Below are positions 3,001-62,530 of a stretch of 64,000 nt of DNA, one piece after another. The notes under the pieces were generated by a model that had not been told where the DNA came from, did no database searches, and saw nothing but the letters and a program-made list of their open reading frames with translations. Positions within the stretch are counted from its first letter, which is position 1. Each line of letters begins with the position of its first letter. Origin of the DNA: a virus (lineage: Duplodnaviria; Caudoviricetes); the IMG/VR virus record IMGVR_UViG_3300028805_000060, positions 80,871 through 144,870 of that record, one strand, 5' to 3'. The translations under genes were made by a program, and so were the position numbers.

Positions 3001-4774
3001 GTTGATCTATTTGAATATTGGTAGTGCTCCCCAATATATCTTGGACATAAATATTATAGCCATCCTTTGTTGGTACATCAACAGTAACTGTTTGAGTTTG
3101 GAATGTTGCAGATATTCTTTCTCCCATTATTATATCATAAAATTGACTAAAAGTATAAATATTTTCTGATTTATTATTGAAAAGAACAAGAGGGAGTTCT
3201 TCTATCCAATAGAGAGGAGAATCCGCAGATTTATATTGAGATGAATTATCTGTATAAAATAAAGTCCCTCCTACAAAAGCTTGAGATTGATAATTTTTTC
3301 CTCCATTTTTTTCTCCTGAAATTATAAAAATTACTTTTCCCAAAAAATCTCCTCATTTAGCATAGCTCCCAGATCTTTTCCATGGAGCATCTCTATCATA
3401 AATATAAATTCCATTCTCTTTTGGATCATCTTGGTCTTTTACTAAAATTCTTTCCCCATTTGACAGAGAGTATCCATCTATGGCTCCTAAGCCAGGATTT
3501 GTTGGAGATTCGTCGACATACAAATTAATATTTGATGTTGTGGCACAAGAAACTTTATCATTATCTAATATATATTCAGGGTTATTGCTATATTTATAAA
3601 AACGAGCATATTTTGCAATGTTTACTTCATCTAAAGACAATTCTCCTTCTCTTGGATAAACGTGTCCTAAAGTAGAATCATATGAATTCACATAAATTCT
3701 GCTTGACACAATATTCGAACTATTTGAATCTGAATCTTCTGTAAAAAGTTCCATCCAAGTTCCTTGAAGCACAACAGGATTTTCTGAAGAAAAAGTTGGA
3801 ATCATCCAATTTGGAGTAATTTCATCTCCAAAATTTTTAGCAATTTGAATTCTTTTAGTAGTTGTTCCTAAAATTTTTCCTGAAGAAAGGGTCATATCAA
3901 ATCAATCATTTGACAAATTATCATAATTAATACGATGCTCAATGATTACTCCCTCTCCTTGGAACAATTCTATTGATCACTTGTATGTTTTATTTTCAGT
4001 AGAAAATTCTATCTTATTACCTAGAAAATCTTCTCAACCATATTCTGTTGTTTCTTTAAGAGCTGGTATTGAAGTTTCATTTTCATCATATTCATATACT
4101 TTCCCTCCATACTGACCGCAAAGAATTAAAATTTTCTCTCCTTCTTCCATATCTGAAAAAGTTTTAACAGGAATGAGACATTTACCTTCTCCTACTTGGA
4201 ATATTCCTCCTATCGAATTTAATTGAAATATCATTTTTGGAACTAAGACTAGATCTCCTACAGATACTTTATCTTGATTATTATTTATATAACCATCCCA
4301 TGAAGATTCTCCGTCAACAAAATATTCTAATTGAGGATTCCCTTGTTGATTATAAACAAGTTGCCAATTTGTCGTATCTGCTAAAAAATAATTAGCTTTA
4401 TAATTAACAGAAAAATATACTGCATTATAAGAATCTAATTTAGATTCAGAATTGATATTCTGAAAAAATGGAATATATAAAAAAGTTCCGTTAATTCCTG
4501 TATTTGAATCTTGTTCATAATCTTCAGGTAAAAAATTTTGAAGTTCAGATACTGGGCTTATATATTTGTCCGAGTCTTTACTTGGAAAAATTTCATTATT
4601 GTTTTCATCAAAAATATGGATTCTATAACCTGTTATATTTTTATTAGATGTATTAATTTTACATTTAAGCCATTCAATATTAGGAACATTAGGACTTCCT
4701 ATAATTTCAGGTACAGTTCTAATATCAATATTATTTAAGAATGGATAACAAAATGTTGGTTTGTAAACTGCCAT
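1..4774 (-). CDS. Large tail/baseplate protein (>1590 aa, runs off the window start; TGA=Trp)
   Basis: ATG at 4774 with GGAGG RBS. Track fragments 4034, 3353, 2819 and 2498 share one frame and each ends in TGA; the frame has no TAA/TAG down to position 2. Contains IDGYSLSNGERILVKDQ..ENGIY, an Fn3-like FRDFNIKSGYSYEYILY and NYISG/KLLKDNKGQSWIVQI segments. Lies directly downstream of the tape-measure gene. Confidence 0.75.
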
Positions 4775-4885
4775 ATATTGACCTCCTTTGTAATTTTGTT
4801 TTTCTGTGTTTATTCAACACTCTTTAACTTAAAAAGATATACTCTTTTTCTTTAAACAATATATCTGTCTAAATCAAAGAGTGTC

Positions 4886-4938: not shown

Positions 4939-7900
4939 TTATCTCTTATTTTTTGTAAGAGAAACTCTTTCTCTGATAGAACGAACGAATGCGTCCGCAT
5001 CAAAGCTTTCATCAGCTGCAACATTCATTGTAAGATTTTCAACATGGAATGATTCATCATTAACTGCTGAATTATTTCGTAAATTATCTAATGCTTTCGC
5101 TGAATTTAATCCTCTTAAGATATCAGGAGTCATTTCTCCTAATCTCCAAAGATTTGTTGTAATATCTGATGGAACAATACCTGTCTTAGAAGGTAAAGCT
5201 GTTAGAGTTCCTTGTGGTGTAACAATAGCTTCTGTACCAAATTCATTTAGAAGAGATAAACCACCAGCTGAAGATAGAGAACCTATAGAATATTCTATTG
5301 GCTTTAAATTATAAAATTTACCATTTTTATCTTTATAAATATACTCTATCTCTCCATTAGCTGCTTTTAAGAGAGTCTCTTTACCAATTCATTCATTCGG
5401 GAAAGAACCTTCTTTAAATATTTGTTTTGCTTCTCACTTTTTTCATGCTGGTAATTGTGTCCACCCAGATGAAGGAATTTCATCCCCAGGAACTACACCC
5501 TCATAGAAAAATCCTTCTCCCAATGAAATATCATTGATTAGATAATCTTTATAATCATCTGATAAACTATCCCCAATTATATAAGGTTGTCCATCTATCA
5601 CGATAGGTTTTAAAGAGCTTCCAAAACGACTTAAATCTCATCTTGCTGTAGTACTTGCATTTCAACGACCTGGAGATTTTAATATAGAATTGAAAAGAGT
5701 ATCTTCTCCAAAATGTTCTTGTATCTTCCCTCGAGTTTCTTCTGAAAGATTTTTATCATTATAAATATCTCGAATTGTATTTGCTGCTTGAGCTCTATTC
5801 GTTTCATTTTGCTTCCAGTCTCTAGTAATACTTAAAGCTCTTGAAATATTACTCTCTACAGCTGCATAATTTTCTCCTTCGGTAAATTTTTCTTCTGTAT
5901 CTTGATCAATAGATTTATTATAATGTTCTTTAATATTTTCAAGAATTCCTAAAATAGAACTAGAAGAATCCGCTCCTATAACTTTTTTCGTTTCTTCAAC
6001 GACAGCTTTCAGTCCTTCATAATCGGCGTCTTCTTTCCATTTAGTGAGAGAATCCTTAATTGATTGAAGTTCTGTAATTTGAACATCTAATTTTGAAATA
6101 ATTTTTTCATTCTCGATATCTTCTAAAGCTTTTTGTTTTTCAAGAATATTTCCTTGATCGGCTTCATATACGAAACCCAATCCTTCTCTTCAAACTCTCT
6201 TCTTTTCTCTTTGTGCATTTTCAAGATCTATTCTAGCTTTAATTAATTTGTTCTCATACTCTCTTTCTTTATTAACTTTTTGAATTTGATCTTTTTGAGC
6301 ATTTAAATTAGAAATTTGATGATCCAAATCTTTACTTAAATAGTCTAGAGTTAAATCCATTAATTCATTTCACTTATCAGAAACTAAATCTAAACTATCT
6401 AAAATGTCGGTAGTTTCCTTTTTAATTGTATCTAATTTTAATTCAGTTCCATCATCATCAAGTACTAATCCATTTCAGCTGTTTATCCAATCTATAAATT
6501 GTTTTCAAGTAGAAATTCCCATCAAATTTGTTCTTTGCATTATTTGATTTTCAAAAGAAGTATCATCTAATCCTGACGCTGTTTGAACTTCTTCAATTAA
6601 TTTATCTCGATGTTCTCCAAAGAACTTTGGATTACCAAGAACGTCTTCAAAAGAAGATTCATTATAGAGTTCAATTGTTTTAGTATATTTATCAATAAAT
6701 TTACTTGCTAATTGTTGGCTATCTCCTAAATATTCTATTAATTCAGGATAGTTCTTCACAATATATTCTTGGAATTTAAATGCATCAGTAAAAATTTTCG
6801 AAATTGAACTTATTCCTTCACTTAGTTTATTTAGATTTTCTGTCAAAGCAGTAGTACCAGCATTTAATTCTCCTAAAGTAAAATCTTTTCAATATTCGAC
6901 GATGTCAGAACCTTCTTTTAATGAATCTGTTGGTGTCTTTAAAGCAGAAGCAAAATCTTGTAAAAGTTCTTCATCCTTCTTTATAATAGCTTTATTCAAA
7001 GTGAAACTATTTCCTGTTCAGAAATCTCTTAAATTGTCGTTTTGTCTAATTGCCTTTGTAAACAATTCATCATTTAAAGAGTCCCTTTCTATCCCTAACG
7101 TATTTACCATGTAATCATTAATAACTTCTTTTAAGCCATTCCTTGAATACATAGAATATAAGTAATCTTGAGAAGCATCTTTTAATCAGATATTATTTTT
7201 ATCTTGAATTGAATCAATTGCGGTTGAATATCCTTCTTCAACAACCTTTGAATAATCATCTTCTCTCTTTTTTATATCAAACTCTAAACCAGAAATTATT
7301 TCTTCAAGTAATTCCTTAGTATATTCTTTATTTGTGAAAACATGGGCAGTATTATCATCTAGTATCCAGGTGCTAAATAATGTATCAAAATGATTCAAAG
7401 CACCGTTTAAATGATCTAATACAGACTCTAAAGAGTCGCCGCCAACAAATTGCTTCACAAATCTAGCAGCTAATAGATGTCCTTGCCCTTTCCCATTTAA
7501 ATTTTCTTTATATTCGGACAATTTAGTTCTTTCATCTAAAGAGAATTTGTCTTGAACCCCATTGAAATTTATTAGAGATTGTGCTGCTGTTAATGCATTA
7601 TAAATTTTTGATATATTTTGAGAATCTAATGAGAGATTATCTATTATTGATTTTAAAGAACCAGTATCTTCTACTTCTAATCCATTCTTATTCAAATATT
7701 TTACAAACTGCTCTCGGAAATCTTTCTCTGTATCCTTATCAGAAGAAACAGATTCTACTATTTCATTGACAGCATCATTCCACTTTTTAAAATCTTCACT
7801 TGTCCATTCATTAACACCTTTTACTGAATCTGCAATACTGTCTAAAGAAGATTTTATTTCATCCATCTTTTCTAAGATTTTCTCATTTCTTTTAATAGCT

Positions 7901-10900
7901 TGGAGTCTTGCAATCTTTTCTTCTTCAGATGGCAAGTGTGCTGCTAAGAAAGGGAAAAACTCACTCACAAGAGCTTGGACAAGCATTCCTACCAAAGGTC
8001 CTCCTAAAGCTGTAGCAATTCCTGTTGCTGCTCCAGTAACAACACCAGAAAGAATTTTTGTATCAGCTGACATTTCATAAGTCTCACCGTCTTGTTGAAT
8101 TGTTTTTGGAGCCGATAATCCTGCCATAACACCCGCTCCAACACCTGCGAGAGCTCTTGTGGCTATATTTGCACCCGATAACTTATTCTTTGCTTTAGGT
8201 TGTCCTTCTCCTTGAGGAGTCGAAGTATTATCAGTTCCTCCTTGTGATGTACTAGATTGATTAGAAATTCCTTTATTACCTGTTTGTTGAACAGTTGTTT
8301 GAGTCTTTCCAGTAGAAGCCTTGTTCGAACTTACTTCTCTATAAATTCCTTGAACATTTTCATCAAGATTTTGAACATGAACTCCAAAAGAAGTACTTAA
8401 TTTTTCAGTCTGCTTATCATAGAAATTTCCTCCAAGGAGTTTTGCCTTTACCCCCTTTGATAATCCAGAGCCTCCTGTGAGTCCAAAGAACGAGCCTGCC
8501 ATTTTTAATAATCCAGGAATCTTGTAAGTATTTAACATAGCAAATAAAGTGCTACCATAACGGATAATTTTAGGAAGAGCTTTAACTAGCCCTGTAGAAA
8601 CTTGAAGTATGCTTTTGAGAAAAGCAGCAATATCTGCATTATTAGCTAATTCTTCTCATGCTGCTTGCAATTTCTTTGTCCAAGCCTCAATTGATTCTTG
8701 ATACGCTTCATACTTCCTTTGAGCTGTTCCTGCTGATTCCTCAGACGTTTTTAAAAGCTCATGATATTTATCCATATTATCGAGTAATACTACAAATGAA
8801 TTTCGTTGTCTTGTCAAAATTGTTGTTAATAACCAAACGAAAATTGGCTATTTTTACCCGTTTTTCGGGCAGTAGAACATTTCTGTCTACTCTGCATTTT
8901 TGTCAAAAATTTAGATTATATATGCAGATCGGACTATAACTTCACCCTTTCGGGGAGGAACGTTTAGTCTCTACGGATTCTATTGTGTTATTTTTATTTT
9001 AAGAATTGTAATATTTTATTTTGTCAACTACCATTATTGATATCTTCTGGGTATAAAGCAAGACATTTTACATTATATTTATGAATTAAATCTAATTTGC
9101 ATTTTGTTTTCATGTCATAATTTTTATATCCTGTCAGACCAAAATATTCAATATATTTGTCATTTATTTTCCAGTCGAATCTTTTTTCTCCACATTCTTC
9201 TTTAGGAATCACTTCTTTATATAAAGCTTCTTTTTGGAATTTAAAATTATTATCTATTAAGAAATTAGAAATAATCTCTTCAGTTTTAGATAAACAAACA
9301 TTGTTTAATTTATCATAAAATAGAGTATCACTCATAATTAAATGTTGATAATTTTCTCTTTTTATTCCAATTAATTCAAAAGCTTTTGTCACACTACCAA
9401 AATACCTTCTAAAAGTTATTTCAGAAGGAAGTCCGTGCAATTGAAACTCTGCTATCAAAGGAGTTCTTTCTAATTTACGCACCACTTCTTCTAACTTTTC
9501 TAATAATACTTCTTTATCATACCATTTTAATCCTTTCTCAGAATTCTTTTTGAGACCCAATCTTTTTGCCTGAGTTACTAATTCTTTTGGGGTTAAATTT
9601 GGATAATATTTTTCATGAAGATATTTATTAGTATATTTAGGATATAATTCTCTAAATTGTTCTTCGTCTTCTGTATGGATAGCATTTAACTTACGATAAG
9701 TAGGTAGATTATGTTCTTTTAATATTCTACAAATAAAATCACTACTTCTTCCTAATTTTTCTGCCATTCTGGTTGGAGTCATAACTTGGTAATTATTTAA
9801 AATAAAATCAAGTTCTTCTTGCTTTAAATGACATTTATTATAAATATCTCTTGAGAGATGATACCTTGATGCATAAGTAAGAATACTTGTTTTACTTTTT
9901 GTTCCTAAAATTTCATATAATTCTTTCCAAGGAGTATTCGGATAATATTGCTTTAGAAGTTCTATTTTTTCATCTGTTCATCTAAATCTGGCCATATTAT
10001 TACCTCCTTTCTTTTTATAAATAACACAATAGTCTTTCCTCGGTATTGCCCTTCTCAGGGGTTTCACCGATATGGTTCCTTTCTATTTAATTTATATAGC
10101 GTAAAATCATAGATTTCTCTATGTTCAGGCACAAGACTTATCTACCTGCAAACGCTGTTGCAATTGCATTCTTAGAAACGTTATCTAATGTTATCCATTT
10201 TTCTGATAAATCTTCTAAGATATCATCAAAATCTCTGAATTGTAAATTAGTATCTCTGACTGCAATTCCAATCTTTCCTAGAACTTTTTCTACATCGTTT
10301 AAATTACCTTCTGTATCAGAAGAATCATAGTCAGTGCTTAATTCATCAAAGGCCCCTGCTTTAACTGCACCATAACGAGATATAATTGTTTTCAATGCTT
10401 GTCCTACAGAGCTACCTGACTGTTGAGAAACGTCGGCAATTGTAGCAACCATAGCTGATGCTTGGTCAATATTAATCCCGTTTAATCCTGCTAAGCTTGC
10501 AAATTGGCTTAAACCTGTTGCGATTTCTCCAGCTGAAGTTGCCGCTTTAATATCTATTGCTGTTAATTTATCAACAACTGACATTGCATCAGTAGCTTCT
10601 AACTTAAATCCTTTTAAACTGCTTGTTACTTTATGTTTAGTAGAGTCGTTAATTCTACCGTCTTACGACCTCATAGTTTCCCATGAGAACTGACTATATC
10701 ATCACCCTTATTATAAGGGGGCACTTACTTCCATTCTACTTAGAATGTACTCTCTCTCGAGATAGTCGATGGGGCTGGATCCTAAAAGGATCCCTGCCTG
10801 CTGATTGCCCAATCTTTACTACTTCACTTCTGACTGAATCTTGCGATCTCAGTTAGTGAGTAAAGCTCTAAGGGTTTTCCAGCATATCAAGTGCTTTATT

Positions 10901-13900
10901 TTTCTAAATATTACTATTTAGCAGACCTATTTTTATATTGTTAAGTCTTTTGTAGCAGTATTAACATCTAACATACCTAATTTACTTAAATACATAGATG
11001 CTGTGATTAATTTATTTGTTTCGCTAACAGAATAACCTTGTCTGAGCCACTCGTTCGCGCTTGTTGCAACTTCAGTTGTTGTTGCACCAATCTGCTTTGC
11101 AAGTTGTGCATAATCATTGATCATTTGCTTAGCTTGATCTGCATTAGCTCCTGATACAATACGGAGATTAGTCATAGCTTTATCAAGTTCTTTTGCTGCT
11201 TGAACAACTTTTTGAATACTACGACGAACGGTTTGCATTACTTTTGAAACAAGACCAAATCTCATGAAGTTTGTAAATGTTCTATTTAGTTGCTGTGATA
11301 ATTGTCCCCAGAAAGTACTTTGACCTTTATTTCTGACATTTTCTCCAGCTAAAGCTAATTTAAGAGATTTTTCTGCTTTATCTTTTATTTCGTTTAATTT
11401 GTCTGTACTATAGCCCTGTTTCTTATAGCTTTCTTCTGCAAGTTTGACTCTTTCTTCAGAAGCTTGTAAAGATTCTTTTATCGCCTCTTCTTGCTCTCTT
11501 AGAGAAGCCAATTCGACTTCATCCATAGTCATAGCTTGACGATTTTTATTACTCTTTAACGAGAGAGCGTATCGATTATACTCTCTATAATCAGCTTTTA
11601 ATCCACGTAAAGCTGCAGCTTCTTCTCTGTTAACACCAGCTTTTTCTTCTGGAAATACAGATTCTTTTATATCAGAAACCATTTTTTCAGCTTTTCACTG
11701 TTCTTTAGCATAAGCTTCGTCTTCATCAGTTCAGCCTTTAATGTCTTTGATCTTTTCTTTACTACGATTTAGTTGTGCTCTTCTAGCTGTTAAAGAATCT
11801 ATTTCCTCTTCATATTCTTTTTTCTTTTTATTTTCTTCGTCAGCCGCTTGCAAATCTCTATTGATTTCTTTTTGTTCTTCTGTTTTTGCTTCTTCCTTTA
11901 ACTTATTAAGCTCGTCAATTCTAGCCTTAACACTTTCTAGTTCATTAAAGAAAGCATAAAATTCTTTTAAATCATTCTTAGTAAGTTTTGTATCTTTTGA
12001 AACACTCTCTTTTGGTTTCGAAGAATTGGCCATGTTTGCAATTTTAAATTCAGCTGGAAGATTCTCTAACTTTGGACGAAGTTCCTTCTCAATTAATTCT
12101 TGAGCTTTAGGATCATCAATATTTCCTATTGCTATTAATTGCGCCATCAAGTTCTCAATTCCAAGTTTATTTAAAGAACTCATGTTTGCTTGCCAAGATC
12201 TTCCTTGTCCAGAGTCTGCAGTTCCTAATATTTCTAAAGTAAGATTACTAAGATCATTGTTTTTCAAAAATTCAAACTCTTCTTTAGTAAGATCTTTTTT
12301 AGTAACTGTTCGATATTTTTCTCCATAAGCAGCAAGCATATCATCATAAGTATAATTCTTATTCTTAAATTCTGCCTGCATTTGCTTAGCAAGAGTTGCA
12401 TACATTCCTACTTGGGCAATATATTGAGGCTTTAAAATCTCATCTATAGTTTTCCCTGTTTTAATATCAGACAAATATACTTTTCCGTCTTCTCCTATCG
12501 TGAATAAGTCAGAGAAACCATAAGAAGTACTAGGATTACCATCTATATTATGAGAAGAAGCGAGAGGAGTTTCTGCTCCTATAAATTTTCTTCCCTTTGT
12601 TAATTTTAAAATATTTTGGATATTTTGATCTGTAACTGAACTAAATGTTTTAGAACCAGTAGCAGACTCAATAATGTCCATTATTTCTAATAACTCTTTA
12701 GGTCCACCTAATCTTTCTTTCATTAAAGAGAGTATATTTTCTGCTTCAGTAAGTTGGTCACCCTTATATTTATTAGATTTAACGCCTGTACGAAGTTCTC
12801 TCAAAATATCTTCTCATGAAGCATTATCACGATCTACGCTACCTAAAGATAAATTCGCAGCATTAATTCTCTCACGAATATCTTCTATTCCACTTGCAGA
12901 ACTAGACCAATATTTTTCATCTATTCTTTTTCGTTCATCTTCTGATAAACTATCATATATTTTCTTAAAATCATCTAAGGATGTTATATCTTTAAAAGCT
13001 TCTTCATTGGAACGGATATTAATTAAATTTTGCCCAATATTAGCCAATTTACCTCTGAATGTAGGGTATAAAATTTTTAAGAATTCATCTCTCTCCCTTT
13101 CAGAATCAAAACCTAATAACTTATCAGTTGACCCTGTATTTTTATATCCTATAATTCTTTCATAAAATTCATTTTCTAATGATTCTGCTAAAGATGCTCC
13201 TTTAAATGGGAATAATATTTTTGTTAAACCAGTAACAGAGTTTGTCTTTCCAGTACCTCCCTGGTCTACCATATCAGAAACTTTTTGATAATTATCTATT
13301 CCTTCTTTGATACCTTTAGTAAGGTTATTGATCTTAATAGTAAGGTTATCAATGCTCTCGTTAGCTCCATTAGCTGCTTTTTGTAAATTTTCAAAACTTT
13401 GCTTACTTTCATCGTTTATAGTTATATCTGCAACTGAAGCATTTCCTGTTCCAGGTAAATTTCTTTCATTTGTTTTTTTATTATAGAAATATGGATTAGA
13501 AACAATTTTATATAAATCTTGTTCTCCGTAAGATCCTAAATCTTTATTAAAATCTCGTAAGATATTACCAAATGATTTAAAAGAATATTTTCCGTCACTG
13601 GCATCTAGCCACTTTTCATCCCCAGTATATTGATATAAAATAGCAGCAAGATTTTTTAATCTTTTTTTATCAAATGCTACATCCCCTGAAGTATCTGCGA
13701 TGCCTCATTTTTCTAATACTGCTCCTAATCTACTTCACCCTTCTTTAGTTGTAAAAGTGCTTTCATCTTTTAAGACTTCTTCTATTTCGCTACCAATATT
13801 AGTTGTAATTTCTTGTAAAAATTTTTCATCATCAAGAGAAGCATCAATACCAAGCGCTTCTCCTAGAGCTGTTTTATCTCCTTTATATCGATTTAATAAT

Positions 13901-16900
13901 TTTTCAAAAACTTTTTTCGAACTAATGGCATCTTGAGAAAGAGAAGTAAAAAATTCTGAAGCATACTGTGCTCCAACAGAAGTTTGGAATCTTTCATTAC
14001 CTTTTATTGAATTAAGGAAGCCTTGTCTGATATTATCAAAAACACCAATTTTATCACGATTTTGTCTTGTAGCGAGTTCTGCTGCTGAAGCAGCTAAACT
14101 ATTCCCACGAGAAGCAAAATCGTCTAAAGTAATGATGTCAGAAGAAGTTTTATCTTCTTCATATAATTTTTGATTTTTCTTTTCAAAAGACTTCATTATT
14201 TTTGTTCGTTTTCTAAAAAGTTCTAATTGTTTTAATAAAACTTCTGTATAAGCTTTTGCTTGCTCTTCTGTAATATTACCTGCAGCAAATTCTGATCTGA
14301 CATTTGCTAATGCATTTGCAATTGTATCTCCATCAACGTCGGCATTAAGAATATCCATTGTCTGTGAATCGACTTGGATTGCGTCACCTAAATTTCTCTT
14401 ACTAGAGGCAAAAAGCTCTGTAATAGGAAGGTTCTGGCCATTCAATAGAGGGAAACGAGTTAAGAACTGAAGAAGTCCTTTTGCGTTTTCTTTGTCGAAA
14501 CCTTCTTTATCAATATCGACGGCATCTATTATCTTTTCGATAACAGACTGTGGAGTATCATCTTCTGAAATTTTTATACCAAGACGATCTGCCTCTCTAT
14601 ACAAACCTTTTTTGTATCCTTCTTCATCTTCTCCTTCTGCTCGTTTGAGCATTTGTCTTAAACGTTCAGTAGAAACTATTCCTACAGCTCCCCTAGAAAG
14701 AATACCAGAATCTCCTCCCGAAATAATTCTACTAAAAGCAGAATGAGATAAACGAGCATTATGAAGAGACTTGTATTTTTCAGATTTTTTATTATTAACA
14801 GAGTCTCACATATCCTTAAGTGCCGTATAAGCACTTTCGTTCATTTGTTCCTGAATTCTCTCTTTTTGTTGCCTAGTTGTAGAACCCGCTATTTGAGTTA
14901 AACCAGAACGCTTAGAGTGAATAAGACCTTCCATTGCCTTAATATTTTCTAAAGCAAGGAATCCTTCTGCATTATCTTTTGGAACAAGATATTGTGTTCC
15001 ATCTTCATCTTCTACTATCTCAAATGCATCTGAATAGTTTCCAAATTGAATTGCATCACCTTTTATATTTACTCCATTTTCATCAGTATAATTATAAGCA
15101 TAATCTAGGTAAGCATCTTTACCTTCAGATTGAGCTTTATATACCTCTCCGAATATTGAGTTTTGAAAGTCTTCTAGACGGAAACCTCTTCTCCCATTAA
15201 AATCTACTTGTTCTAGACCTGCATGCCCTGCAATTTTTTCATTGCTTCAAGGAATAATAACTCCCTGCTCACTTGCTATTTCGTCGGCAGTCTTTTGACT
15301 CCCTCTAATAATGTCATCAACAAGATTTACCGATCTTCCTCCTTCTTCTTTCGAAAGATCTAAGTTATTTTCATACACTGTTTTTAGAACATTCTTTGCA
15401 ACAGAAGCTGTTTCTTTAGAAATTAATCCTGCTTTGACTGCAGCATCAGCTTCTCTTTCAAAGTCATTTATCATTTTATAGCCCATATTAACAGGACGAC
15501 CACCTTTTCGAGTCGGATCAAAATATGTAGCTACATCCTGAATGTTCCATCTTTCAATACCAATAACTCCACCGTTACTCTTAGTTTGTATTGAATCTTC
15601 TGTAACTTTGAATTGAGAATCTTCGCCAGTCGCATAGACAAAAGCCTTTATAAAATCAAAACCAAAATTTTGGCTAAGTAAATTCTTTTCCTCTTCTGAC
15701 AAAGAATCAAAATTTTTATTTTCTTCAATAACTTCTTTATAAATTTTGTTAAAATTTCCAAAAATAAAACTACCATCTTCTGACATGCCTTTAAAATATT
15801 TATCAACAAAATCACTAGGTTTTATTTTAAGTTTATTTAAAATTGGTTTTAGTTTTTTTGTTGCTTTCATAAAAGCTTCGGTGAAGTCAGTTTTGGCTTC
15901 ATTGTATTTTTGATTTCTTCCTTCTTCACTTTCAGCATTTCTTATTGCTTGAGATCTTATAGAAGTAAATTCATTAATAATAGAAGGAATATTTTCTCCT
16001 AATTTACGAGAACCTGTCTTAAGTTCTGTAATCATATGCACATTCAAAGAACCATCTCGATTAAAAATATCTTTAGGATCAAATCCAGCTTTAATTAGAG
16101 CTTGCGCTAAAATTGCATTTTTTACAGTAATAACTACTCCATGAAGTCCTGATTCTGCAGCTATTTTTTCTCCTGTTTTTAATTGAGCATATTCTTTTAC
16201 AGAAGCAATTACCTCTCCTTCTTCATTTTTTTCGAGATCTACATGATATTTGTCACCTTTTCCTTTTAAGTGAAGAACACTTCTTAATGCTGCTTGATCA
16301 ACATAATCTTTTTGACCCTGAGATAATTTTTCATCTAATTTAGTAATATATCTATCAATTTTTTCGAGCTCTTGATCATTCATTTTAGATCTTTCTTCTG
16401 GATTTAAATATCTTTCAATTAAAGGGTCATCTTTCAGATCCTTTTTATTCATTTTAAGAAGAAGCTCTTTTTTCTTTTGCTCTATTTTTTTTAGTTTATC
16501 TGTATCTAATTCAACTTTATCGATTTCTCTTAAAGAAGTGAGGATATTTTTATTTCCTTTTCGCCCTGAGGTATGACTAATTTGTTCAGATACTAAAACT
16601 TGTTCATAATCTCTCCCAAAAGAAAAATCACTTTCTGGAAAGATCTCATCAAAAAGTTTTCCTTTCTCCTCTTCAGACATTTTACCATTTTTATCTAAAG
16701 CCTTTTTCATGTCTTTCATTCTATGAGCTTTTTGTGCTGCTTGATTCCAAATAGCTGTAGGAATTTTTGATTCACCCTTAATAAAAGACTCTCTCATTAT
16801 TTTTCTAAGATCTTGTCCGCTCGTATGATCATTTGTTTTCGCATGACGAAGACCAACACCTTGTCCAAGACTTTGAAGCTCTACTCCTGTATTTTTTGCA

Positions 16901-18060
16901 TATTCATATGTTTGAGCTGAGACATTCCCAACATCAATTTTAGCAGAGCTCTTTTTTCTACCAATATTTTTTAATCCCATATTACCAGCTTTCGCGCCTC
17001 TGCTCCCTCTTTGAGCAAATTCTTGACCTGGAGTAAGAGAAGAACCATGACCGATAGAGATATTACCTTTTGACAAAGCTGTTTCTGCTATGTTACTAAA
17101 AGTCACAGGGGTTATCTTTGCCATTTTTAATAAATCTGTTTTCATCCCAGCCCAAGCAGGCGATTTAGTAATATAATCATATTGGGAATTACCTTCTATT
17201 CCTTTTATAATTTTATCTGCTTCTTTGGGATTAGTAGCAGCTAAAAAATAAATTGATTTTAGATTAGACTCAATTTGTCTCTTATAATAGATACTGTTTT
17301 CTTTATTGTTATATTTAGCAATTTGGTTAGAATATTCTTCTTGGATTTGCCTGATACGTACTCCAAAATTAAGTCTTTGTGTTTTTAATAAATTTTCATT
17401 AATTTTAGTTATATCAATACCTAATTCTTTAGAGAGCTCTTTTTTAGCCTCATCCATTTCTGCTTTAGTAGCGACTAAAGTATCAACGTTATTTATAGAA
17501 GAAGCGGGATAAAAATATTTTCTAATATCATCCCTTTTTGATTGAGGTAAAGAACCTGTGCTTCTAATTTCTTTATTAGCTTCTCTAATCATTGCTTGAA
17601 TTTTGCCACCAGGTTTACTTATAAGTTCTGCTAATGTATCAAATTCAGCTTCTTGAAGAGTACACCAACCTTCCTCTCCTGTTCTTTTACTTCTATAGTA
17701 AACGAGACTATTAGCTTCTTGGTGTCCGTTTTTAGAAATTATACCTGCTCCTGTCTCTAAGGCAAACCCATATTCAACTCCTAATTCAGGATGCCCTTTT
17801 GGATAAAATACTAATTGATCTTTACTATCATCAATTCCACAATCTCAGTTAAGCGATCCAAGATAAGAATATATATCATTAAGAGAGCGCTGAACAGAAA
17901 TAGCTCTAGAAATAGAGTTCTCTTTAATTTGAGTTAATTCACTTTTAGTTAGCTCTTCTCCCAGAGTAATATCTAAACGAGAAGAAAAATATTCACCTGT
18001 ATAGCTTTTATACTTTTCACCAAGTATTGATTGTATATCACTTATATTTCTTATAGCCAT
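4939..18060 (-). CDS. Giant spliced multidomain tape-measure protein (3825 aa): two-barrel RNA polymerase domain + RecB-like PD-(D/E)XK nuclease + TP901-family tape measure. Exons 18060-10944, 10628-10144, 8814-4939
   Basis: AAAGGAGG RBS before the ATG. Eleven track fragments share one frame; the gaps contain only TGA (about 21), apart from the stops inside the introns. Tape-measure motifs: ELDKAMTNLRIVSG..QIGATTTEVATSANEWLRQG, KDLTSSLKGFKL, AGTRQRNSFVVLL, RVWREGLGFVYEAD and C-terminal YSIG..LLNEFGTEAIV. Confidence 0.88.
8815..10143 (-). mobile_element. Group I intron 2 in the tape-measure gene (1329 nt, carries a homing endonuclease in the P6 loop)
   Basis: 5' exon ends CAGGU and pairs with GCCUG (U.G wobble); P10 UCUUGU pairs with 3' exon ACAAGA. 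P AUCGGUGAAA, Q AAUACCGAGG, R GUAGAGACUA, S AAGUUAUAGUC; P3 AGGAAC/GUUCCU; terminal G at 8815. Splicing restores AG|TRQRNSF. Confidence 0.93.
8994..9995 (-). CDS. Intron-encoded homing endonuclease (333 aa; N-terminal helical repeats, HNH-associated repeat, C-terminal PD-(D/E)XK/Vsr-like nuclease)
   Basis: AAGGAGG RBS. MARFR-W(TGA)-TDEKIELLK; WYDKEVLL..RTP..LPSEITFRRYFGS repeat; SKTEEIISNFL..RFDWKINDKYIEYFG. Flanked by the stem CTATTGTGTTATTT/AAATAACACAATAG. Confidence 0.8.
10629..10943 (-). mobile_element. Group I intron 1 in the tape-measure gene (315 nt, no ORF)
   Basis: Exon GACU pairs with GGUC (U.G wobble). P AUGCUGGAAA, Q AAUCAGCAGG, R UCGACUA, S GAUAUAGUC; P3 GCACUU/AAGUGC; terminal G at 10629. 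Splicing restores KD-L-TSSLKGFKLEATDA. Confidence 0.92.
12150..13240 (-). other. RecB/Cas4-like PD-(D/E)XK nuclease domain within the tape-measure polyprotein
   Basis: Motifs SVT, AETPL, GFSDLF, LSDIKTG (12454-12474) and YIAQVGMY (QxxxY) in correct order. Confidence 0.8.
13900..17050 (-). other. Two-barrel (double-psi beta-barrel) RNA polymerase domain within the tape-measure polyprotein
   Basis: Motifs in canonical beta then beta' order: GSSLTP..SRGAKAGNM (16978-17046), GRDYEQVLVSE (about 16585-16617), LKTGEKIAAESGLHGVV (16132-16182), DGSLNVHM..GSRKLG, ARLSHSAFSRII, LTRFPLL (14443-14463), GDAIQV..NADVDGD (14326-14346), then IGVFDN..LSQDAISSKK. Confidence 0.8.
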
Positions 18061-18262: not shown

Positions 18263-19213
18263 TTAAATAGTTTTATATTCTAATAACTTGTTATGTTGAT
18301 AACATTTTCCATCTTCAATAACTAATACATTGCATACTCCACTGTAAGCTGTGCAAGCATCAATTGCAATAAGATTTGGGGAATAGAAAATATTAAAATC
18401 AATTTCAGTCTTATCTCTTGTTCTTCAATAATCAGTGCCATAGTAATGAACTTTAAATTCAAAACAATGCCAATGGCCACATACTAATATTTTTCCTTTT
18501 TCTTTTTCTGAATCAAATAAACCTCTGTCAAACAAAGCATATGGACAACCTCAAGTTGCTTGTTCAAAATCTTCATTAGATGAATTCGTTCTCCAGTCTT
18601 CTTTTTCAAACAATGATTCATAGTTCGGTTGATACATGTGCATCCCTTTAGGTTTATTCACAGGAATAAAAGCATGACAGAAAATATAATTGTCTAATTC
18701 AAAATAATCATTTCACTCATTAGAATCAAAAATCCAATTTAAAATATCAGTTTTTTTCACTTTATTAACAATTTTTTTCCATATCTTTTTGCCATAAGCA
18801 ATGTCATTTTTTGTAACCCAACTAAAACAATAATTTTCCATTGAATCTATTATTTCTTTAAGATATTCATAATCTGTTTTTAAAGAACTCTCTTCATGAA
18901 GGTTTAACCCTGCTAATTGAAAAACTGTTAACATAGTCCCATTGCTGATATCATAACTATTAGGGAGAGATTTATTAAGAAGGTCTCTCAATAGATATTC
19001 ATGATTGCCTCTAATTAATATTCTTTTTTCTTTTGGCAATGTTCTAACAAAATTTAAAGTTTCTAAAGTTTGATCACCTCTGTCAAAAAGATCCCCATTT
19101 ATAATAAGAATATGTTCATCATTATTAATATCAAACCCTGCTTCATCTAAAGCCTGTTTAAATGGGGTAAAAAAACTATGAACATCTGATGTGATAAAAT
19201 ATTTTTTACTCAT
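18263..19213 (-). CDS. Calcineurin-like metallophosphoesterase (316 aa, TGA=Trp)
   Basis: SDVH, GDLFDRG, RGNHE and, after the TGA, FCHAFIP, TWGCP, GHWH and AIDACTAYSG. The C-terminal catalytic motifs need readthrough. Confidence 0.88.
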
Positions 19214-19251
19214 TTTTCTTCTCTCCTTGGAACCGTTAATTTTGATTACAT

Positions 19252-21528
19252 TTATCTCTCTAAGAATTTTTCTCTTAGAGAGATAATGTCTGTTTTGAAT
19301 GGATATTCTTTTGTTTCTTTGTTATAATAAGTATTATACAATTCTTTACAATATCCATAGAATAAGTTCTCTATACTAGAAGTTAGCATACCTGTTTTAG
19401 TGATATAGCCACATCTTAAAGTAGTCTGTGCTACACCTCTTAATTTTTTCCATAATTTATAATATCCTGTTTTTAATTTTGTCATAAAACCATTCTGATC
19501 TACAAAAACAAAACCTTCGATAAATTCATCGTTATATTTATAATCTTCTTCTTGAGATTCATAATAGAGATTTCTAAAATCTTCCCAAGTTTTTAATTCA
19601 TATAACTTTTGTTTAATAGGGCAACCAATGTAAGTTGCAATATTTTGTAGTCTAGAATAATCTAAAATTTCATATTCTAATTCATTTTTAACCCCATCTA
19701 AAAGAACAAGTTTAGATTCATTATATTTAATAATATGAGAGTCTTTTTCTATATCTATGCATTCAAACACTAAAGAATAACTATCTCCATCCTCATAGGC
19801 TGTTTTTAATAACTTTAATGTTTTTTCATAATAAGGTTTCAATTGTTGCTTAATATATTCAACATAATCTCCACCTGTTGTAGATTTAGAAGCTATAAAT
19901 AAATTATCTTTATTTGGATTATATGAAACTATTGCTAAGAAACCATTCTCCTTTAAATAGGCTTTAACAGGAAAAGCTAGTTTATTTTTCAAAGTAGCTA
20001 ATTCAGTTTCAGGTCTTTCATTAATATTAAAGAACTTTTGATATGACCTTGCTATAATACTATTATTTATAGTATCAATAAATAATCCTCTTGCTAAAAC
20101 GGTCTGTCTATTCCAGTTTCCTTTTAAAAAGGCTTCTCTACTAAAATTGAATGATGAAATACCATCAGATAATGTTTTTTCATTTACAAATTTATTATTT
20201 CTTAAATAGGCAATTGCTTCTTCTACCGTTTTAACTTTTCGTTCTTCTGTAACTAAATTTTCATCTACAGGTTGACAATCTTCTAATTCAATAATATTCC
20301 AGCCAAATAAAGTATTTAAGCCATACGGAATTCTATCCCCAGATTCAGTTATTCCATAAGCTGGAATTATACCTTTAGTTTCTAATTCAACAATTCTTAA
20401 ATTACCACCAAACTCGACTTTACCTTCCAAGTTAAAAACTCTATCGGCAAGTCTGGTTTCAGAATCTTCTGTATTTCTATGCCCATGAATTAAGTATTGA
20501 TTATCTTTAGTTTGACCCATCCAAGATTCAGCAATAGTTAAATAATCTTCATAATTTCCTACGCCTTTAATTATAGATTTAGTAGGAAAATATAATAAAT
20601 TAGTATTTAAATTAGGAATACCTCCATGACAAGCAAGTATTTCTACCCCATTGTACATTATGTGAGAAAATTGTCTAAATTTTCTATACAATTCCCTAGC
20701 AGATTTTTCACTAAATCCTTTGGCAATTAATTCTTTTTTAGTTTTATACTCAAACTCATTTGAATTTGTAGGAGACCCACAACCATAATCATACAAATGT
20801 CTCTCATGATTGCCTTCTAATAAACAAACATTTGGTTTATCTTTAATAGAATTTAAGAATTGTAAAACTTCTACATTCTGATTTCCACGATCAATATAAT
20901 CACCTAAAAAGATGTATTCAGTATCATCTTTTAATCCATTTTTAAAATCTGGATATTGCATTAGAGTATCATAACAACCATGAATATCTCCAACAAAAAC
21001 CAACTTTTTATACTCAGATAAATCAACTGGCTTCTCTAAAATCTGATCTAGCTCATTAGGTTTAACAACAGTTACCCCTGAAGGAACTGACTGTGTAGCA
21101 AATCTAGCATATATATTTTCTATGGCTTTTTGAGGAACTTGTTTGTATTCAGGTCTCATCTTATTTTGAGCAATACAAGTCTCTAAAGGAACATCAGTAA
21201 AATCAACACAATACATCCTATATCTATAAGAAGATGCAAGATTTTTATATTGTTGTATATCTTTTGTCTTTGATGCAGTTGCATCAATAACTGTGAACTC
21301 ACCACGAGACATTCTATACTCAAGAATTTTGAATAATACTTCCCAAGTCATAGATTCATTTTCTCTATTCTGAGATATTTTTAATTCCCCTGTAGGTTGC
21401 ATTTCTAATGAACTGCAATATACTCTTAAATCATCAGGTGAAAGAGTATAAGGTTCTAAATGATGTTCTTTGATCCAAGTCGTCTTACCTGCACCTGGAG
21501 CTCCTCTTAATATAACTAATGTTCTCAC
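19252..21528 (-). CDS. Trifunctional RNA repair enzyme: polynucleotide kinase + metallophosphoesterase + Rnl1-type RNA ligase
   Basis: GAPGAGKT P-loop with SPDDLR and IDAT; GDIHG/GDYIDRG/GNHE/HGH; ARGLF, KFFN, KENG (ligase motif I), EGFV and KLK. Confidence 0.88.
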   Translation of the reverse strand: MRTLVILRGAPGAGKTTWIKEHHLEPYTLSPDDLRVYCSSLEMQPTGELKISQNRENESMTWEVLFKILEYRMSRGEFTVIDATASKTKDIQQYKNLASSYRYRMYCVDFTDVPLETCIAQNKMRPEYKQVPQKAIENIYARFATQSVPSGVTVVKPNELDQILEKPVDLSEYKKLVFVGDIHGCYDTLMQYPDFKNGLKDDTEYIFLGDYIDRGNQNVEVLQFLNSIKDKPNVCLLEGNHERHLYDYGCGSPTNSNEFEYKTKKELIAKGFSEKSARELYRKFRQFSHIMYNGVEILACHGGIPNLNTNLLYFPTKSIIKGVGNYEDYLTIAESWMGQTKDNQYLIHGHRNTEDSETRLADRVFNLEGKVEFGGNLRIVELETKGIIPAYGITESGDRIPYGLNTLFGWNIIELEDCQPVDENLVTEERKVKTVEEAIAYLRNNKFVNEKTLSDGISSFNFSREAFLKGNWNRQTVLARGLFIDTINNSIIARSYQKFFNINERPETELATLKNKLAFPVKAYLKENGFLAIVSYNPNKDNLFIASKSTTGGDYVEYIKQQLKPYYEKTLKLLKTAYEDGDSYSLVFECIDIEKDSHIIKYNESKLVLLDGVKNELEYEILDYSRLQNIATYIGCPIKQKLYELKTWEDFRNLYYESQEEDYKYNDEFIEGFVFVDQNGFMTKLKTGYYKLWKKLRGVAQTTLRCGYITKTGMLTSSIENLFYGYCKELYNTYYNKETKEYPFKTDIISLREKFLER

Positions 21529-24067: not shown

Positions 24068-24277
24068 TTAGTATAAGAATGTAGGGTGTATATCTATATA
24101 AACACCACCAGACGCACTATGTCTAATCATTCTAAATAAAACACCATTGCAACTAGAAGGAGGATAAAATATAGTACTATAACCATTTTCAAGACCCATA
24201 GTAGTTGCATTCCCTATTGTTATTGATCCAGTGTTATCTATTGGGCTATCAAAGAATAGAATTAAATCAAAATACAT
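24068..24277 (-). CDS. Short ORF, probably the frameshifted C-terminus of the long tail fibre
   Basis: No RBS; overlaps the fibre stop codon; its frame is open upstream as STTASMYFD. Confidence 0.4.
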   Translation of the reverse strand: MYFDLILFFDSPIDNTGSITIGNATTMGLENGYSTIFYPPSSCNGVLFRMIRHSASGGVYIDIHPTFLY

Positions 24278-27200
24278 ACTGGCTGTAGTCGAATATCAAA
24301 TAAATAAGTATGAGTACTATTTGAAAAAGTGTCAGTATAATAACCTGCTCCTCCACCAATACTCGTTTTATATGCAGCTAAATAACGTCCATTTTTTGAT
24401 GCTACTTTAAACCATAAATATCTAAAGGTTGAACCTGATGCCCCATCTGCTAAACTTACCATTGGGGAACTATACGTCCACGTAGGATTAGCTGAAGAAC
24501 TTGGATTCGCGCTTTGTATTTTTACATCTCCATATTTAGATTCCAAAATATTTATGGTTCCTTGATGTGATGAACTATATCCTAAATAATTAATATTTAT
24601 CTGCCCATTATTTGAACTGTTTCCTAAATAGTTAATAGTCCTTGTCCCTGTCATATAAGAGATACTACCAGTATTACTATAAGTACTTATTGATCCTGTT
24701 CCACTTAAAGTTGTAATTGATCCATTGTTTGCAAGAGAAGTTACAGTTTTTCTAGATGGGATTGTACCTTCTAAAGCTTTAAAATAAATATTTGAGCCTG
24801 TTTCTGTATTTCCGCCTATTCTTACTTCACCATATGTATTAGTAATTATATTAACGGTTCCTTTATTACTTGCATTATATCCATTATTAGAGATAGTCAA
24901 TGTTCCAGAAGAACCCGATCTTCCTAATGTAGTGATGGTCCTTGATCCAGTCATATTAGTAATAGTACCAGTATTTGTATAAGTACCAATGGTTCCACTA
25001 CCTGAATAAGTACCAATAACTGAGTTAGCACTATTAGTAAGAGTGGTAACTGTTGTTTTATAAGAAGAGTTATAAGAATAAATAGATAAAGATGGAACTG
25101 TAAGTGATTGTTGAACGGTACTGCCCGTTATATTATATCCTAAATTTATACTATTAACTTGAGTAACATTTACGGTACCATTGCTAGAACTGCTTGTAAC
25201 CCCAACAGTACTATTAGAAACATTAGTTATACTAATCCTTCTATATGTATTATTATTGATTGTTAAATATGATGTAGTATCATAAGCTGTATCATCTTTC
25301 ATATCAACTGCAAATGGAACATCTTGTGGAACAGTTATTTTATTAATATAATATTTACTTCCTGTAAGAGAACCTGAGGTATCACCATAAGTCCCAGTGG
25401 CAATCCATCCAGCAGTAGAAACAGAATAATTTCTTGATACACCTGAAGCTGAAGGTTCTACATATATTCCATTATTTGTGCTTGTAAACGTAACGTTTGC
25501 CTTGTGAGAATCATCAATGGAAATAGTACCACTCGTTGTTGATGATGCCGATCCACTATGATTACTTACTGCCTTAATTGTATAATATCGTTTTGATACA
25601 TTATAACCTTCAGGAAGGTTTAAATATTGATCTCAAGTACCAGGAGTAATATTTGCTACAGAACTACCTGACGCTGTTGTGCTTGAAGTACTTGTAGGTA
25701 AATTTATTTGATTTAATAAGCCATTTAGATCCGTAACTGTTATATATGAAGGATCGTCTAAAGAATCACCATAAGGAATGGAAATTGCACATTCTTGCAT
25801 ATCAACGATTGGAAAATCTGGATAATATTCATTATATATTTTAATTATTCCATAGTTACAAGGGACATTTAATTCCCCTCCTGTTTCATCTTCAGCTCCA
25901 ATATAAACAGTTAAAGTTTTATCAGGTTTAACGAACAAATTATCAATATACTTAGGTCCAAAAATAGCACTTCCGTATGTCCCTGTAGAAATTCATCCTG
26001 AAGTACTAACTGTATATCCTCCTGAAGAAGCACTGATTGATATTCCAGAGGTATTAGTGTCAGATAAAGTAGCATGACCAGCATAGAGAGTATTTGATCC
26101 TGAAGACCCTGATTGACTTCTCACAGTATAATTCTGAACTGTTCCATTATTAATAGAACTAATTCAACCTGCCGTTCCTACGCTTGCTGTAGGTGTAATT
26201 TTAAAGTATTGAGAAGTAACTGAAGTAGGAGAAGTTCCTGCTGAGCTTAAAGTAGCATAAGACGCACTTGGAGTAGCTGCACCTGCTCTAACTGTTGCAG
26301 TTGCATAAGCTGCAACATTAGTTGAAGTTGATTGTGTCAACTCAATATTTCCTGTAGGACCACCTAATGTTTTGTAATACCTATCGCTGTTATAATAACC
26401 AGCTGCTAACTTATATGTTGTTCCTGCAGCTAATTCTGTAGGAGTTGTTCCTTGAGGAGCTGTTGCTGTTCCTCATGTAGCAGTTGGAATAGTATAATAT
26501 TGGTCTTTAGAACTTGCATTAGCTGTTGCTGTTGCTGTTGAGCTAACAGTTTTTTGAGTACTACTTGTAGAAGCATCAGTATAACCTTTTGTTCATGTAA
26601 TAGTACTTGATTCACCAGCAGTCGAAGAACCTGTCGTAGCACTATTTCCACCCGTTGCTTTAATATAATAACCTGAAGAAGGTTGAGATGAAGCAGCTGT
26701 TAATGAAATATTACCTGTAGCTGAAGCAACAGCTGTTGGTGTTACTGAAGGTGAAACCGATAATGAACTATCACTGACTGAAACTGAACTTGAATCAATT
26801 GGGTAATAAGCAGTAGTAGAATTAGCCGCTGCAGTAGCCGTAGCTGTCGAAGTAATTGTTTCTGTTCCTTCTGTAATATAGCCAGTAGTTTTTGTTACTG
26901 TAGCACTTTCTCCACTAGTCGCACTACCTGTAGTAGCTGAGTTCCCACCGACAACGCTGATATATCTACCAGAAGTTGGTTGAGTGGTTGTTTTAGTTCC
27001 TAAAGTAATGCTTGATCCAGTTGCACTTACTGTTGCTGTTGGTGTTACTGAAGGTGATACTGATAAAGATTTATCGTCTATTGCTACACTTCCAGCTGCA
27101 ATTTTACCTACTTGTGTGGCTGTTCCAGCTTGAACCGCTCCAGAATTTGTAAATCAACCAGCTGTTCCTGCAGTAATAGTTCCTTTAACTTTTGCACTGA

Positions 27201-30200: not shown

Positions 30201-31080
30201 CAGTATAATTTCTTGTAACTGAAGGAGTAATTTCAGGGTTTTGTGTAATAGAAACCTCACCAGAACCTTTTGATAATCCTCCTCCTGATAATCCTCCACC
30301 AGAGGCAGTTCCTTTAGATAATCCTCCACCACTAACTGATACACTAGCACTTGCTAATGGAATATAATAAACACTAGAAGAATTATTACCAACTGAAACT
30401 GTTGTACCAGTAATTGAAGAATGAGAACTATCTCCATATCCAGCACTAGACACATTAGCCGATATTGTTAATGTACTACTATTACTTGGAACATAAACTG
30501 CAGCATAGTAATAGTTTATATCAGAAGTATTAGTAGTAGGAGTTATCGCTATTTGAGATTTACTTGATACTGGTGAAGGAAGAGTTCCTATAGTAGGAGT
30601 TACTTTTGCAGTACCACTTTGAGTGGCAGTAATCCCTATAAGAGGAAGAGTTGTAGTACCAGTAGCAGTAGATGTGTTTCTAGTTCCAGCACTAGATGAA
30701 ATATATCCAGCAGTACCTACTGTTGGAGCACTAACAGTACCTGATAAGGTAACATCGAAGTTCGAATTAGTAGAATTATATGAGATATTTTTACTGACTG
30801 AACTATATGAAGTTCCAGATGTGACTGTTGCTTTTGGTCCTTCAGAATTTGCTTTCACTGTAACTGTACCTAATGCCATATACCCAGTATCTTTAGTAAT
30901 AGCTTGTTCAGTAGCACTAGGAGTTACAGTTTTGTTTTGATAATTAACGATCCTTGATGAAAAATTTTGAGGATCAATTTTATTAGCATCTGTAAGAGGA
31001 GTAGTTGCGGTTCCATCTGTTGCACGAATGGTGTTCGCGATGTCTGTAAGAAAATCTGTTAAATTGTTATTCTTAGCCAT
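24262..31080 (-). CDS. Long Ser/Thr/Gly/Ala-rich tail fibre / adhesin (2272 aa, TGA=Trp)
   Basis: Fragments 27328, 25633 and 24262 are in frame. N-terminal LTDIANTIR, DVLTGKTFY and TVPAGYHNGSGKV fibre motifs; many internal repeats. Confidence 0.8.
29587..29672. repeat. 32-bp perfect direct repeat (29587-29618 and 29641-29672) within the tail fibre
   Basis: agaagcagaaccaccagttgcactagcactag occurs twice; encodes SASATGGSAS. Confidence 0.85.
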
Positions 31081-62389: not shown

Positions 62390-62530
62390 GTGCGCCACCA
62401 CGAATTGGACAGGTTTAGAGTCTCTGACCCGACATATTGGGTGGTCTTTTCTCGTCTTCCATCCCTTTTGACATGCAGGGTTTGTCCCTGCGCTCGGTGG
62501 ACCAGGGTCTCTCGACCAGCCCAAATGAAG
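62390..62530 (-). ncRNA. Candidate structured RNA or DNA element
   Basis: About 54% GC (65/120 in 62401-62520) with several hairpins, including GGTC-GAGA-GACC and GCAGGG-ACAAA-CCCTGC. Confidence 0.4.

Follow-up and report, generated by a model that had tools for sequence, protein, structure and literature searches.

A β′-type RNA polymerase barrel, very probably, within the intron-split tape measure protein of a recoded ruminant-gut phage

The stretch analysed here (the window, 64,000 nucleotides) is the final 64 kb of a 144,870-bp IMG/VR virus record, IMGVR_UViG_3300028805_000060, which CheckV rates as complete. On its minus strand, the frame running from 18060 to 10936 is interrupted by TGA alone, eight times, and since TGA is read as tryptophan in this phage, the frame gives a product (P0001) of 2375 amino acids (aa); the polymerase-like frame is open only under such a reading. 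A preliminary description made from the letters alone had called this region a highly diverged single-chain β/β′ RNA polymerase core. We found that it is not a stand-alone gene: the polymerase-like stretch makes up residues ~330-1400 of the 2375-codon first exon in a tape measure protein (TMP) gene that is split by introns. It forms the N-terminal part of that protein and very probably contains a β′-type catalytic barrel of polymerase ancestry. The motif strings quoted in the preliminary description all lie in this one minus-strand frame, between aa 344 and 1383 and in the stated order, and the Escherichia coli motifs set beside them there proved correct and collinear when checked against the RpoB and RpoC sequences.

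13861..17073, minus strand: RNA-polymerase-like module, aa ~330-1400 of exon 1, from motifs, homologues and alignments A4, A6, A8 and A11 (the span first described, 13900-17050, corresponds to P0001 aa ~337-1387)
aa 344-350 of P0001, minus strand: HGSSLTP, read in frame
aa 472-482 of P0001, minus strand: GRDYEQVLVSE, read in frame
16138..16173 (aa 630-641), minus strand: candidate β-type barrel motif GEKIAAESGLHG with K632 and H640, from conservation and the A11 profile
aa ~675-694 of P0001, minus strand: DGSLNVHM..GSRKLG, read in frame
aa ~1105-1113 of P0001, minus strand: LSHSAFSRI, read in frame
14311..14478, minus strand: β′-type barrel core, with R1202-F-P1204 (14449-14457) and N1239-A-D-V-D-G-D1245 (14326-14346), from alignment, hhalign and hmmsearch
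aa 1202-1206 of P0001, minus strand: RFPLL, read in frame
aa 1239-1245 of P0001, minus strand: NADVDGD, read in frame
aa ~1338 of P0001, minus strand: IGVFDN, read in frame
13912..13926 (aa 1379-1383), minus strand: invariant I-S-S-K-K motif, 134 residues past the catalytic Asp triad

Conservation of the β′-type core was followed in alignment A6, which holds 11 TMP-linked sequences with 18-34% identity to P0001, save for one close relative (P0002) at 75%. Its invariant columns are R1202, P1204, D1241, D1243, G1244, D1245, G1339, S1380, K1382, and K1383, so the RxP arginine and the three Mg-binding aspartates, described at the outset as kept, are unchanged in all 11 sequences, as is the DxDGD motif whose conservation among homologues had been named in advance as a test. 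The full pattern, R-x-P followed after 35-50 residues by [N/H][A/G]DxDGD, persists without exception at ~20% identity, the same spacing is found in all family members and in true β′ open-reading frames (ORFs), and a rough estimate from residue frequencies puts the chance expectation of R-x-P..[NH][AG]DxDGD in a protein of such size at ~1e-5. In the downstream ISSKK motif, S1380, K1382, and K1383 are invariant in the 11 sequences and I1379 and Q1376 are nearly so; as a guess, it might be the equivalent of the bridge helix.

In profile comparison with hhalign, the 54 columns of A6 that run from RxP to DxDGD aligned to four true β′ sequences with a probability of 89.2% (E 2.2e-6). The A6 and A11 hidden Markov models (HMMs) matched E. 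coli RpoC at 444-470 with a score that none of 400 RpoC shuffles reached, and hmmsearch with the family HMMs also matched the β′ of L031. A scan seeded with a relative (tblastn from P0129) recovered, in addition, one fused β-β′ protein as well as ORFs verified by Pfam as true β′ (RNA_pol_Rpb1_2, up to 81 bits), and two relatives gave sub-threshold Pfam RNA_pol_Rpb1_2 matches at the expected place (E 0.15 and 0.05). Homology of this block to true β′, with the RxP arginine and the three aspartates in place, is well supported by these sequence comparisons. What it shares with β′ of cells and jumbo phages (RNA_pol_Rpb1_2, PF00623) is an NRAPTLH-like RxP element and NADFDGD at equal spacing, along with the 54-column profile match; it differs in that the barrel core alone aligns, the Pfam model with a best E of 0.05 stays below its cut-off, neither Rpb1_1 nor a clamp nor any further β′ domain was found, and the single chain is fused to a tail protein.

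The same pattern recurs in a family of polymerase-carrying TMPs. An exhaustive phmmer search yielded four relatives and a profile search one more; when IMG/VR, JGI metagenomes, and GTDB genomes were scanned with the close-family alignment, no relatives emerged, and single-protein scans returned near-identical copies only. Distant members were reached through the phage's second polymerase and then by a pattern scan seeded with a broader alignment. RxP..[NH][AG]DxDGD stands at aa 1125-1310 in seven more giant TMPs (P0003, P0128, P0129, L027, L028, L033, and P0002), and three N-terminally truncated TMPs carry it as well. The giant TMPs L027, L028, and L033 have R-x-P..N-A-D-F-D-G-D at aa 1150-1310 with PhageMin_Tail ~1100 residues downstream. 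In two related IMG/VR genomes, G001 (TAG recoded) and G002, the N-terminal parts of the TMPs read R-Y-P..H-G-D-F-D-G-D and R-F-P..N-G-D-Y-D-G-D, respectively, at aa ~1130-1170. P0003 is a single, standard-code ORF of 4067 aa on a contig with the SPbeta-like genes YorF and YorH, and its domains follow in the order polymerase-like region, PDDEXK_1 (aa 1927-2045), and PhageMin_Tail (2446-2661); in the uninterrupted homologues P0003, L027, and L033, PhageMin_Tail lies downstream of the module. Public viromes hold at least seven lineages with a polymerase-like TMP, and the TMP 'cargo' seems to be exchangeable within this phage group.

Evidence for a β-type barrel comes from the region around K632. 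In an alignment of eight lineages this lysine, within G-E-K, is invariant, which bears out the earlier statement that the first β lysine is kept. Position 640, described earlier as a histidine in place of the second β lysine, is histidine in three sequences, including this phage, and arginine in four more distant lineages, with L028 unclear; the retention of a basic residue in seven of the eight lineages argues against the impairment that had been suggested. The best match of the A11 HMM to RpoB ends on P-G-D-K-M-A-G-R-H-G-N-K-G, which sets the family lysine on K1065 and the His or Arg on K1073, and 0 of 400 shuffles score as well, a count to be read with the caution that simple shuffles flatter coiled-coil-rich sequences. 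HGSSLTP and GRDYEQVLVSE, which had been put forward as β motifs, are present as strings and are conserved among the closest relatives only. Pfam gave no Rpb2 match, and a feature search of the ESM Atlas with the β-like part gave nothing. These observations are suggestive of a very diverged β-type barrel with the invariant lysine in the same module, and the module would then, if that barrel is real, be a single-chain two-barrel RNA polymerase. The β/β′ core first described thus stands in its β′ half, conserved and homologous to true β′, while its β half comes down to one HMM match that varies with the alignment used.

Several results weigh against a complete and functional two-barrel enzyme. 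With the A8 HMM of the same β-like region, 112 of 400 shuffles do as well, so the β match depends on the alignment, and hhalign of the N-terminal half against the YonO-like family, a true β, and a fused β-β′ protein gave no significant match. Pfam identified no RNA polymerase family in P0001, nor did PHROGs; phmmer and hmmsearch against PDB sequences found no RNA polymerase, the sole row being an unrelated chain at E 1.4, and tblastn of the polymerase-like protein against GenBank phages gave no match. AlphaFold2 models were of low confidence, with a mean predicted local distance difference test score (pLDDT) of 53.7 for aa 320-1500 (6 sequences) and 56.7 for aa 590-1400 (11 sequences), predicted template-modelling scores of 0.28 and 0.32, and a pLDDT below 65 in the catalytic region; at this confidence, two barrels that face each other around one active site are a proposal. 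One related phage (G003, IMGVR_UViG_3300013426_000001, L020:4961-15346) has a 3462-aa TMP without the module alongside a YonO-like polymerase, which indicates that the module is dispensable in this phage group. As a separate observation, the G003 TMP begins with a different N-terminal part of ~1800 residues, in which an apparent D..[DE]xK nuclease motif was made out by eye.

Structural searches were similarly faint. Foldseek against the PDB returned nothing at E <= 0.001, and no chain of gp66, the polymerase of crAss-like phages, appeared among the best 50 rows; about 30 of those 50 weak rows were, however, β′ chains from bacterial, plastid, AR9, and phiKZ polymerases, a supportive hint that is partly sequence-driven. 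An ESM Atlas feature search gave a weak RdRP-labelled cluster (0.81) and nothing stronger, and VIA structural matches (Z <= 6.6, on a long helical hairpin) were at noise level. Empty Pfam and PDB sequence searches and noise-level VIA matches are what would be expected of a motif arisen by chance in a long, low-complexity, helical protein with no RNA polymerase ancestry. Such an origin must nevertheless be set against a motif invariant in 11 sequences, an hhalign probability of 89% to β′, 400 RpoC shuffles of which none is as good, tblastn cross-matches to Pfam-verified β′ genes, and the enrichment of β′ chains among the weak Foldseek rows, and we consider it highly improbable.

Another reading is that the module is a relic, a former polymerase domain that no longer catalyses anything and is retained because it gives the TMP structure or sets its length, or because it plugs the tail. 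The barely recognisable β-like half, the histidine at the canonical second lysine in this phage, the poor structure models, and the missing module in the G003 TMP would all fit a relic. The three aspartates, the glycine, the RxP arginine and proline, K632, and the S-K-K residues are, however, invariant over lineages of ~20% identity, which is hard to explain without selection on the active site, and at position 640 the histidine is exchanged for arginine, not for a random residue, in four other clearly aligned lineages. Given this pattern, loss of catalysis appears improbable.

Fusion to the tape measure core was established from the gene structure, which consists of three exons and two intervening sequences.

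4939..18060, minus strand: whole tape measure gene, with exons 18060-10944, 10628-10144, and 8814-4942 plus the stop codon
10944..11613, minus strand: first part of the tape measure core (PhageMin_Tail / phrog_9696), closing exon 1, from Pfam, PHROGs, and tblastn with P0003 aa 2358-2502
10629..10943, minus strand: group I intron 1, 315 nt, no ORF, Rfam Intron_gpI (RF00028) at 58.1 bits against a cut-off of 50, E 2.2e-14
8815..10143, minus strand: intervening sequence 2, 1329 nt, with an HNH-type homing-endonuclease-like ORF at 8997-10067

Over its final ~230 residues, P0001 resembles tape measure families, a similarity that breaks off abruptly at PhageMin_Tail position ~62. It carries on in 10662-10141 and then in 8817-4942, with abutting positions in phrog_4211 (692-840, then 842-1022), and all three exon pieces match PHROG tape measure families. 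In tblastn with the uninterrupted 4067-aa homologue P0003, the pieces lie end to end as P0003 aa 2358-2502, 2501-2661, and 2662 onward. When the exons are joined, the spliced TMP is one continuous frame of 3825 aa with 21 TGA=Trp codons. Intron 1 was missed in the Rfam search of the whole window at default thresholds and detected when the short stretch was searched alone; its junction after splicing reads KDL|TSSLKGF. A goat-gut metagenome DNA contig that lacks exactly this intron reads K-D-L-T-S-S over the joint, with synonymous differences, and this intron-less allele independently confirms the junction. The ORF within intervening sequence 2 matches phrog_1891 (HNH endonuclease) and phrog_22655, relatives have Pfam HNH_repeat at that place, and the junction AFAG|TRQRN is consistent with the homologues P0003 and P0130. 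Both upstream exons end in U and both intervening sequences in G, and the frame is restored at both joints. Intervening sequence 2 gave no Rfam match; from its junctions (U/G rule, frame restored) and its endonuclease ORF it is probably a group I intron. RNA-library contigs over parts of the exons and the endonuclease ORF contained no spliced joint, and the single RNA-side joint, which skips 39 nt with a side of 24, is too weak to use. Identical short contigs were seen in a sheep gut metatranscriptome library, some from the intron-borne endonuclease ORF; they are not evidence of transcription or protein.

The reading of TGA as tryptophan draws on several observations. The phage encodes a suppressor tRNA with anticodon UCA (c[45455,45554] of genome C1, outside the window), TGA codons, such as that for W1452 of P0001, align with TGG-encoded tryptophan in standard-code homologues (P0003, P0004, and P0005 at W1452), no stop codon besides TGA was found within the virion-gene frames, and those genes are dense in TGA. 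Nearly all virion genes of the window contain in-frame TGA, with 22 in a 1926-aa ORF and 21 in the TMP, two of the latter lying within the polymerase-like region (15249-15247 and 14808-14806, minus strand), whereas the long plus-strand early block and the replication genes of the genome have almost none. Among the related phages, G001 (IMGVR_UViG_3300029705_000055, L021), whose YonO-like polymerase is 65% identical, reads TAG as glutamine instead of TGA as tryptophan; its TMP exon has 15 TAG codons and an apparent intron at the same site as in the window phage. The relatives G002 and G003 use the standard code in the corresponding genes.

Behind the polymerase module, the TMP carries a nuclease domain, and a second polymerase is encoded elsewhere in the genome.

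12253..12795, minus strand: RecB-like PD-(D/E)XK nuclease domain, aa ~1756-1936, lying past the polymerase module and ahead of the tape measure core
1862-4816 of genome C1, outside the window, plus strand: second polymerase P0007 (L005), 985 aa, with D-Y-D-G-D, Pfam RdRP

The nuclease domain matches, at a BLASTP E of 2e-9, the P0003 region assigned by Pfam to PDDEXK_1 (29.7 bits, cut-off 22), and the motifs GxSD...D-I-K...Q-x-x-x-Y are visible in it. P0007 is, by sequence, a single-chain two-barrel polymerase of the YonO/QDE-1 kind (Pfam RdRP, 41.8 bits against a cut-off of 23.8; phrog_8308, E 2.7e-95). More than 675 homologues were found, mostly on 120-155-kb metagenomic contigs, and each of the complete genomes G000, G001, G002, and G007 encodes both polymerases. 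In-frame TGA occurs 7 times in the P0007 gene and 21 times in the TMP gene, so that neither enzyme could be produced before the suppressor tRNA is expressed.

P0007 also provides a measure for the earlier suggestion that the module itself resembles the YonO/cellular RNA-dependent RNA polymerase type. The module has in common with YonO of SPbeta, QDE-1, and gp66 of crAss-like phages a single polypeptide, a phage context, and DxDGD, and a true member of the YonO/QDE-1 group, P0007, is found in the same phage. Neither P0001 nor its relatives match PF05183, however, and hhalign against the YonO-like alignment, while in register, was insignificant (probability 0.6%); the suggested affinity found no support.

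A closer parallel is gp96 of Thermus phage P23-45, a 5002-aa TMP whose N-terminal ~1100 residues are a clamp-less two-barrel virion polymerase with DFDGD at 779-783 (Chaban et al. 2024, Nat Commun 15:317; PMC10770324). It transcribes the pre-early genes of P23-45, including the gene of a second polymerase, gp64, and in the relatives G18 and phiFa the fused module is absent while gp64 is kept (PMC10770324). In the literature on TMP-polymerase fusions, we found no TMP-fused polymerase besides gp96. The two systems are alike in having a giant TMP with an N-terminal module of two-barrel type, in which F-R-N-P..V-D-F-D-G-D of gp96 is in register with R-x-P..DxDGD of the family, in encoding, besides the fused one, a non-virion polymerase of two-barrel kind, and in having relatives (G003 in this group, G18 and phiFa in the Thermus group) from which the fused module is missing although the second polymerase is retained. 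They share nothing detectable in sequence past the universal motif (hhalign of A3 against gp96 1-1200, probability 0.3%; A6 against gp96 600-1000, 6.4%, motif region only). The Asp triad lies at aa 1241 here and at 779 in gp96, the polymerase is followed by a RecB-like nuclease here whereas a metallopeptidase is annotated in gp96, and the partner is of YonO/QDE-1 type (Pfam RdRP) rather than of gp64 type. The phage studied here comes from the mesophilic ruminant gut, contig searches having placed it in gut or rumen samples of sheep or goats (window positions 8600-11400 in sheep and goat gut metagenomes), in contrast to the thermophilic host of P23-45, and its gene is marked by group I introns and by TGA recoding. 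Of the two proteins, gp96 is the one whose activity and presence in the virion have been demonstrated. The new family is like gp96 in architecture and genome logic and is not a detectable member of the gp96 sequence family.

The structural genes surrounding the TMP gene include the terminase, the portal, and others upstream of it in the window, and past it the 1926-aa ORF, which has weak tail-fibre-like matches. Directly upstream of the TMP gene, the stretch 18266-21528 (minus strand) holds a 758-aa kinase-phosphatase-ligase (phrog_8238 RNA ligase, E 2.9e-203) without TGA and a separate 316-aa metallophosphatase, which have the look of an RNA (tRNA) repair cassette within the structural module. 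A giant ORF of the virion module, 2272 aa with 7 TGA and no PHROG match, occupies 24265-31080 (minus strand), and genes for an NrdD-like anaerobic ribonucleotide reductase and a protein resembling tyrosine integrases lie among the virion genes at 39533-41461 and 42400-43413 (minus strand). A DUF3800-XI RNA motif of Rfam (42.4 bits against a gathering threshold of 37.8) was located at 62477-62523 (minus strand), just downstream of an exonuclease-like gene at 62571-63812. A search for over-represented intergenic words as phage promoters gave ribosome-binding sites and a few AT-rich words only.

Given the parallel with gp96, we moderately favour the view that the module is a complete, active RNA polymerase delivered by the tail for early transcription. 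In such a scheme, the TMP would be synthesized late, dependent on the phage's own suppressor tRNA, and the polymerase-TMP would be loaded into the tail tube, to be ejected when infection begins, the RecB-like nuclease behind the polymerase travelling along. At the entry pore it could transcribe the first-entering, TGA-free early genes independently of the host RNA polymerase, and the YonO/QDE-1-type polymerase encoded elsewhere in the genome would take over later. Since the suppressor tRNA has to precede both polymerases, an enzyme packed beforehand would have a part to play, for which the host RNA polymerase is the alternative. An active module might also serve other ends, as a two-barrel nucleotidyl transferase that makes primers, acts at genome ends together with the RecB-like nuclease, or copies RNA as QDE-1 does. 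The constant position of a PD-(D/E)XK nuclease behind the polymerase-like module in this subfamily, the presence of a separate YonO/QDE-1-type polymerase in the phage, and the ability of G003 to manage without the module would suit such an activity, but the one two-barrel enzyme with a TMP fusion that has been characterised transcribes pre-early genes from DNA (PMC10770324), and the TGA codons in both polymerase genes leave an opening for a pre-made enzyme; we therefore regard a role other than early transcription as unlikely.

A TMP that carries a transcriptase into the cell has so far been seen in one phage group, Thermus P23-45 and its relatives. The family described here, unrelated in sequence to gp96, found in mesophilic ruminant-gut phages in at least seven lineages, and equipped with an extra nuclease and a YonO-type partner, probably provides an independent second case of polymerase delivery by the tail, and would, if true, add another extremely diverged branch to the tree of two-barrel polymerases. 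It is a tentative and rather doubtful extension that 'polymerase plus nuclease' TMPs are a recurrent, unrecognised device of large gut phages and that, in recoded members, the packed polymerase starts the infection by transcribing the suppressor tRNA along with the early genes that lack TGA; the code switch and the whole programme would then proceed without the host RNA polymerase. The case also bears on stop-codon-recoded phages: both polymerase genes here need the suppressor tRNA, and an enzyme made beforehand could account for expression of the first genes. If the module is active, the fusion of a polymerase to an ejected tail protein would be a general solution to early transcription rather than an oddity of thermophiles.

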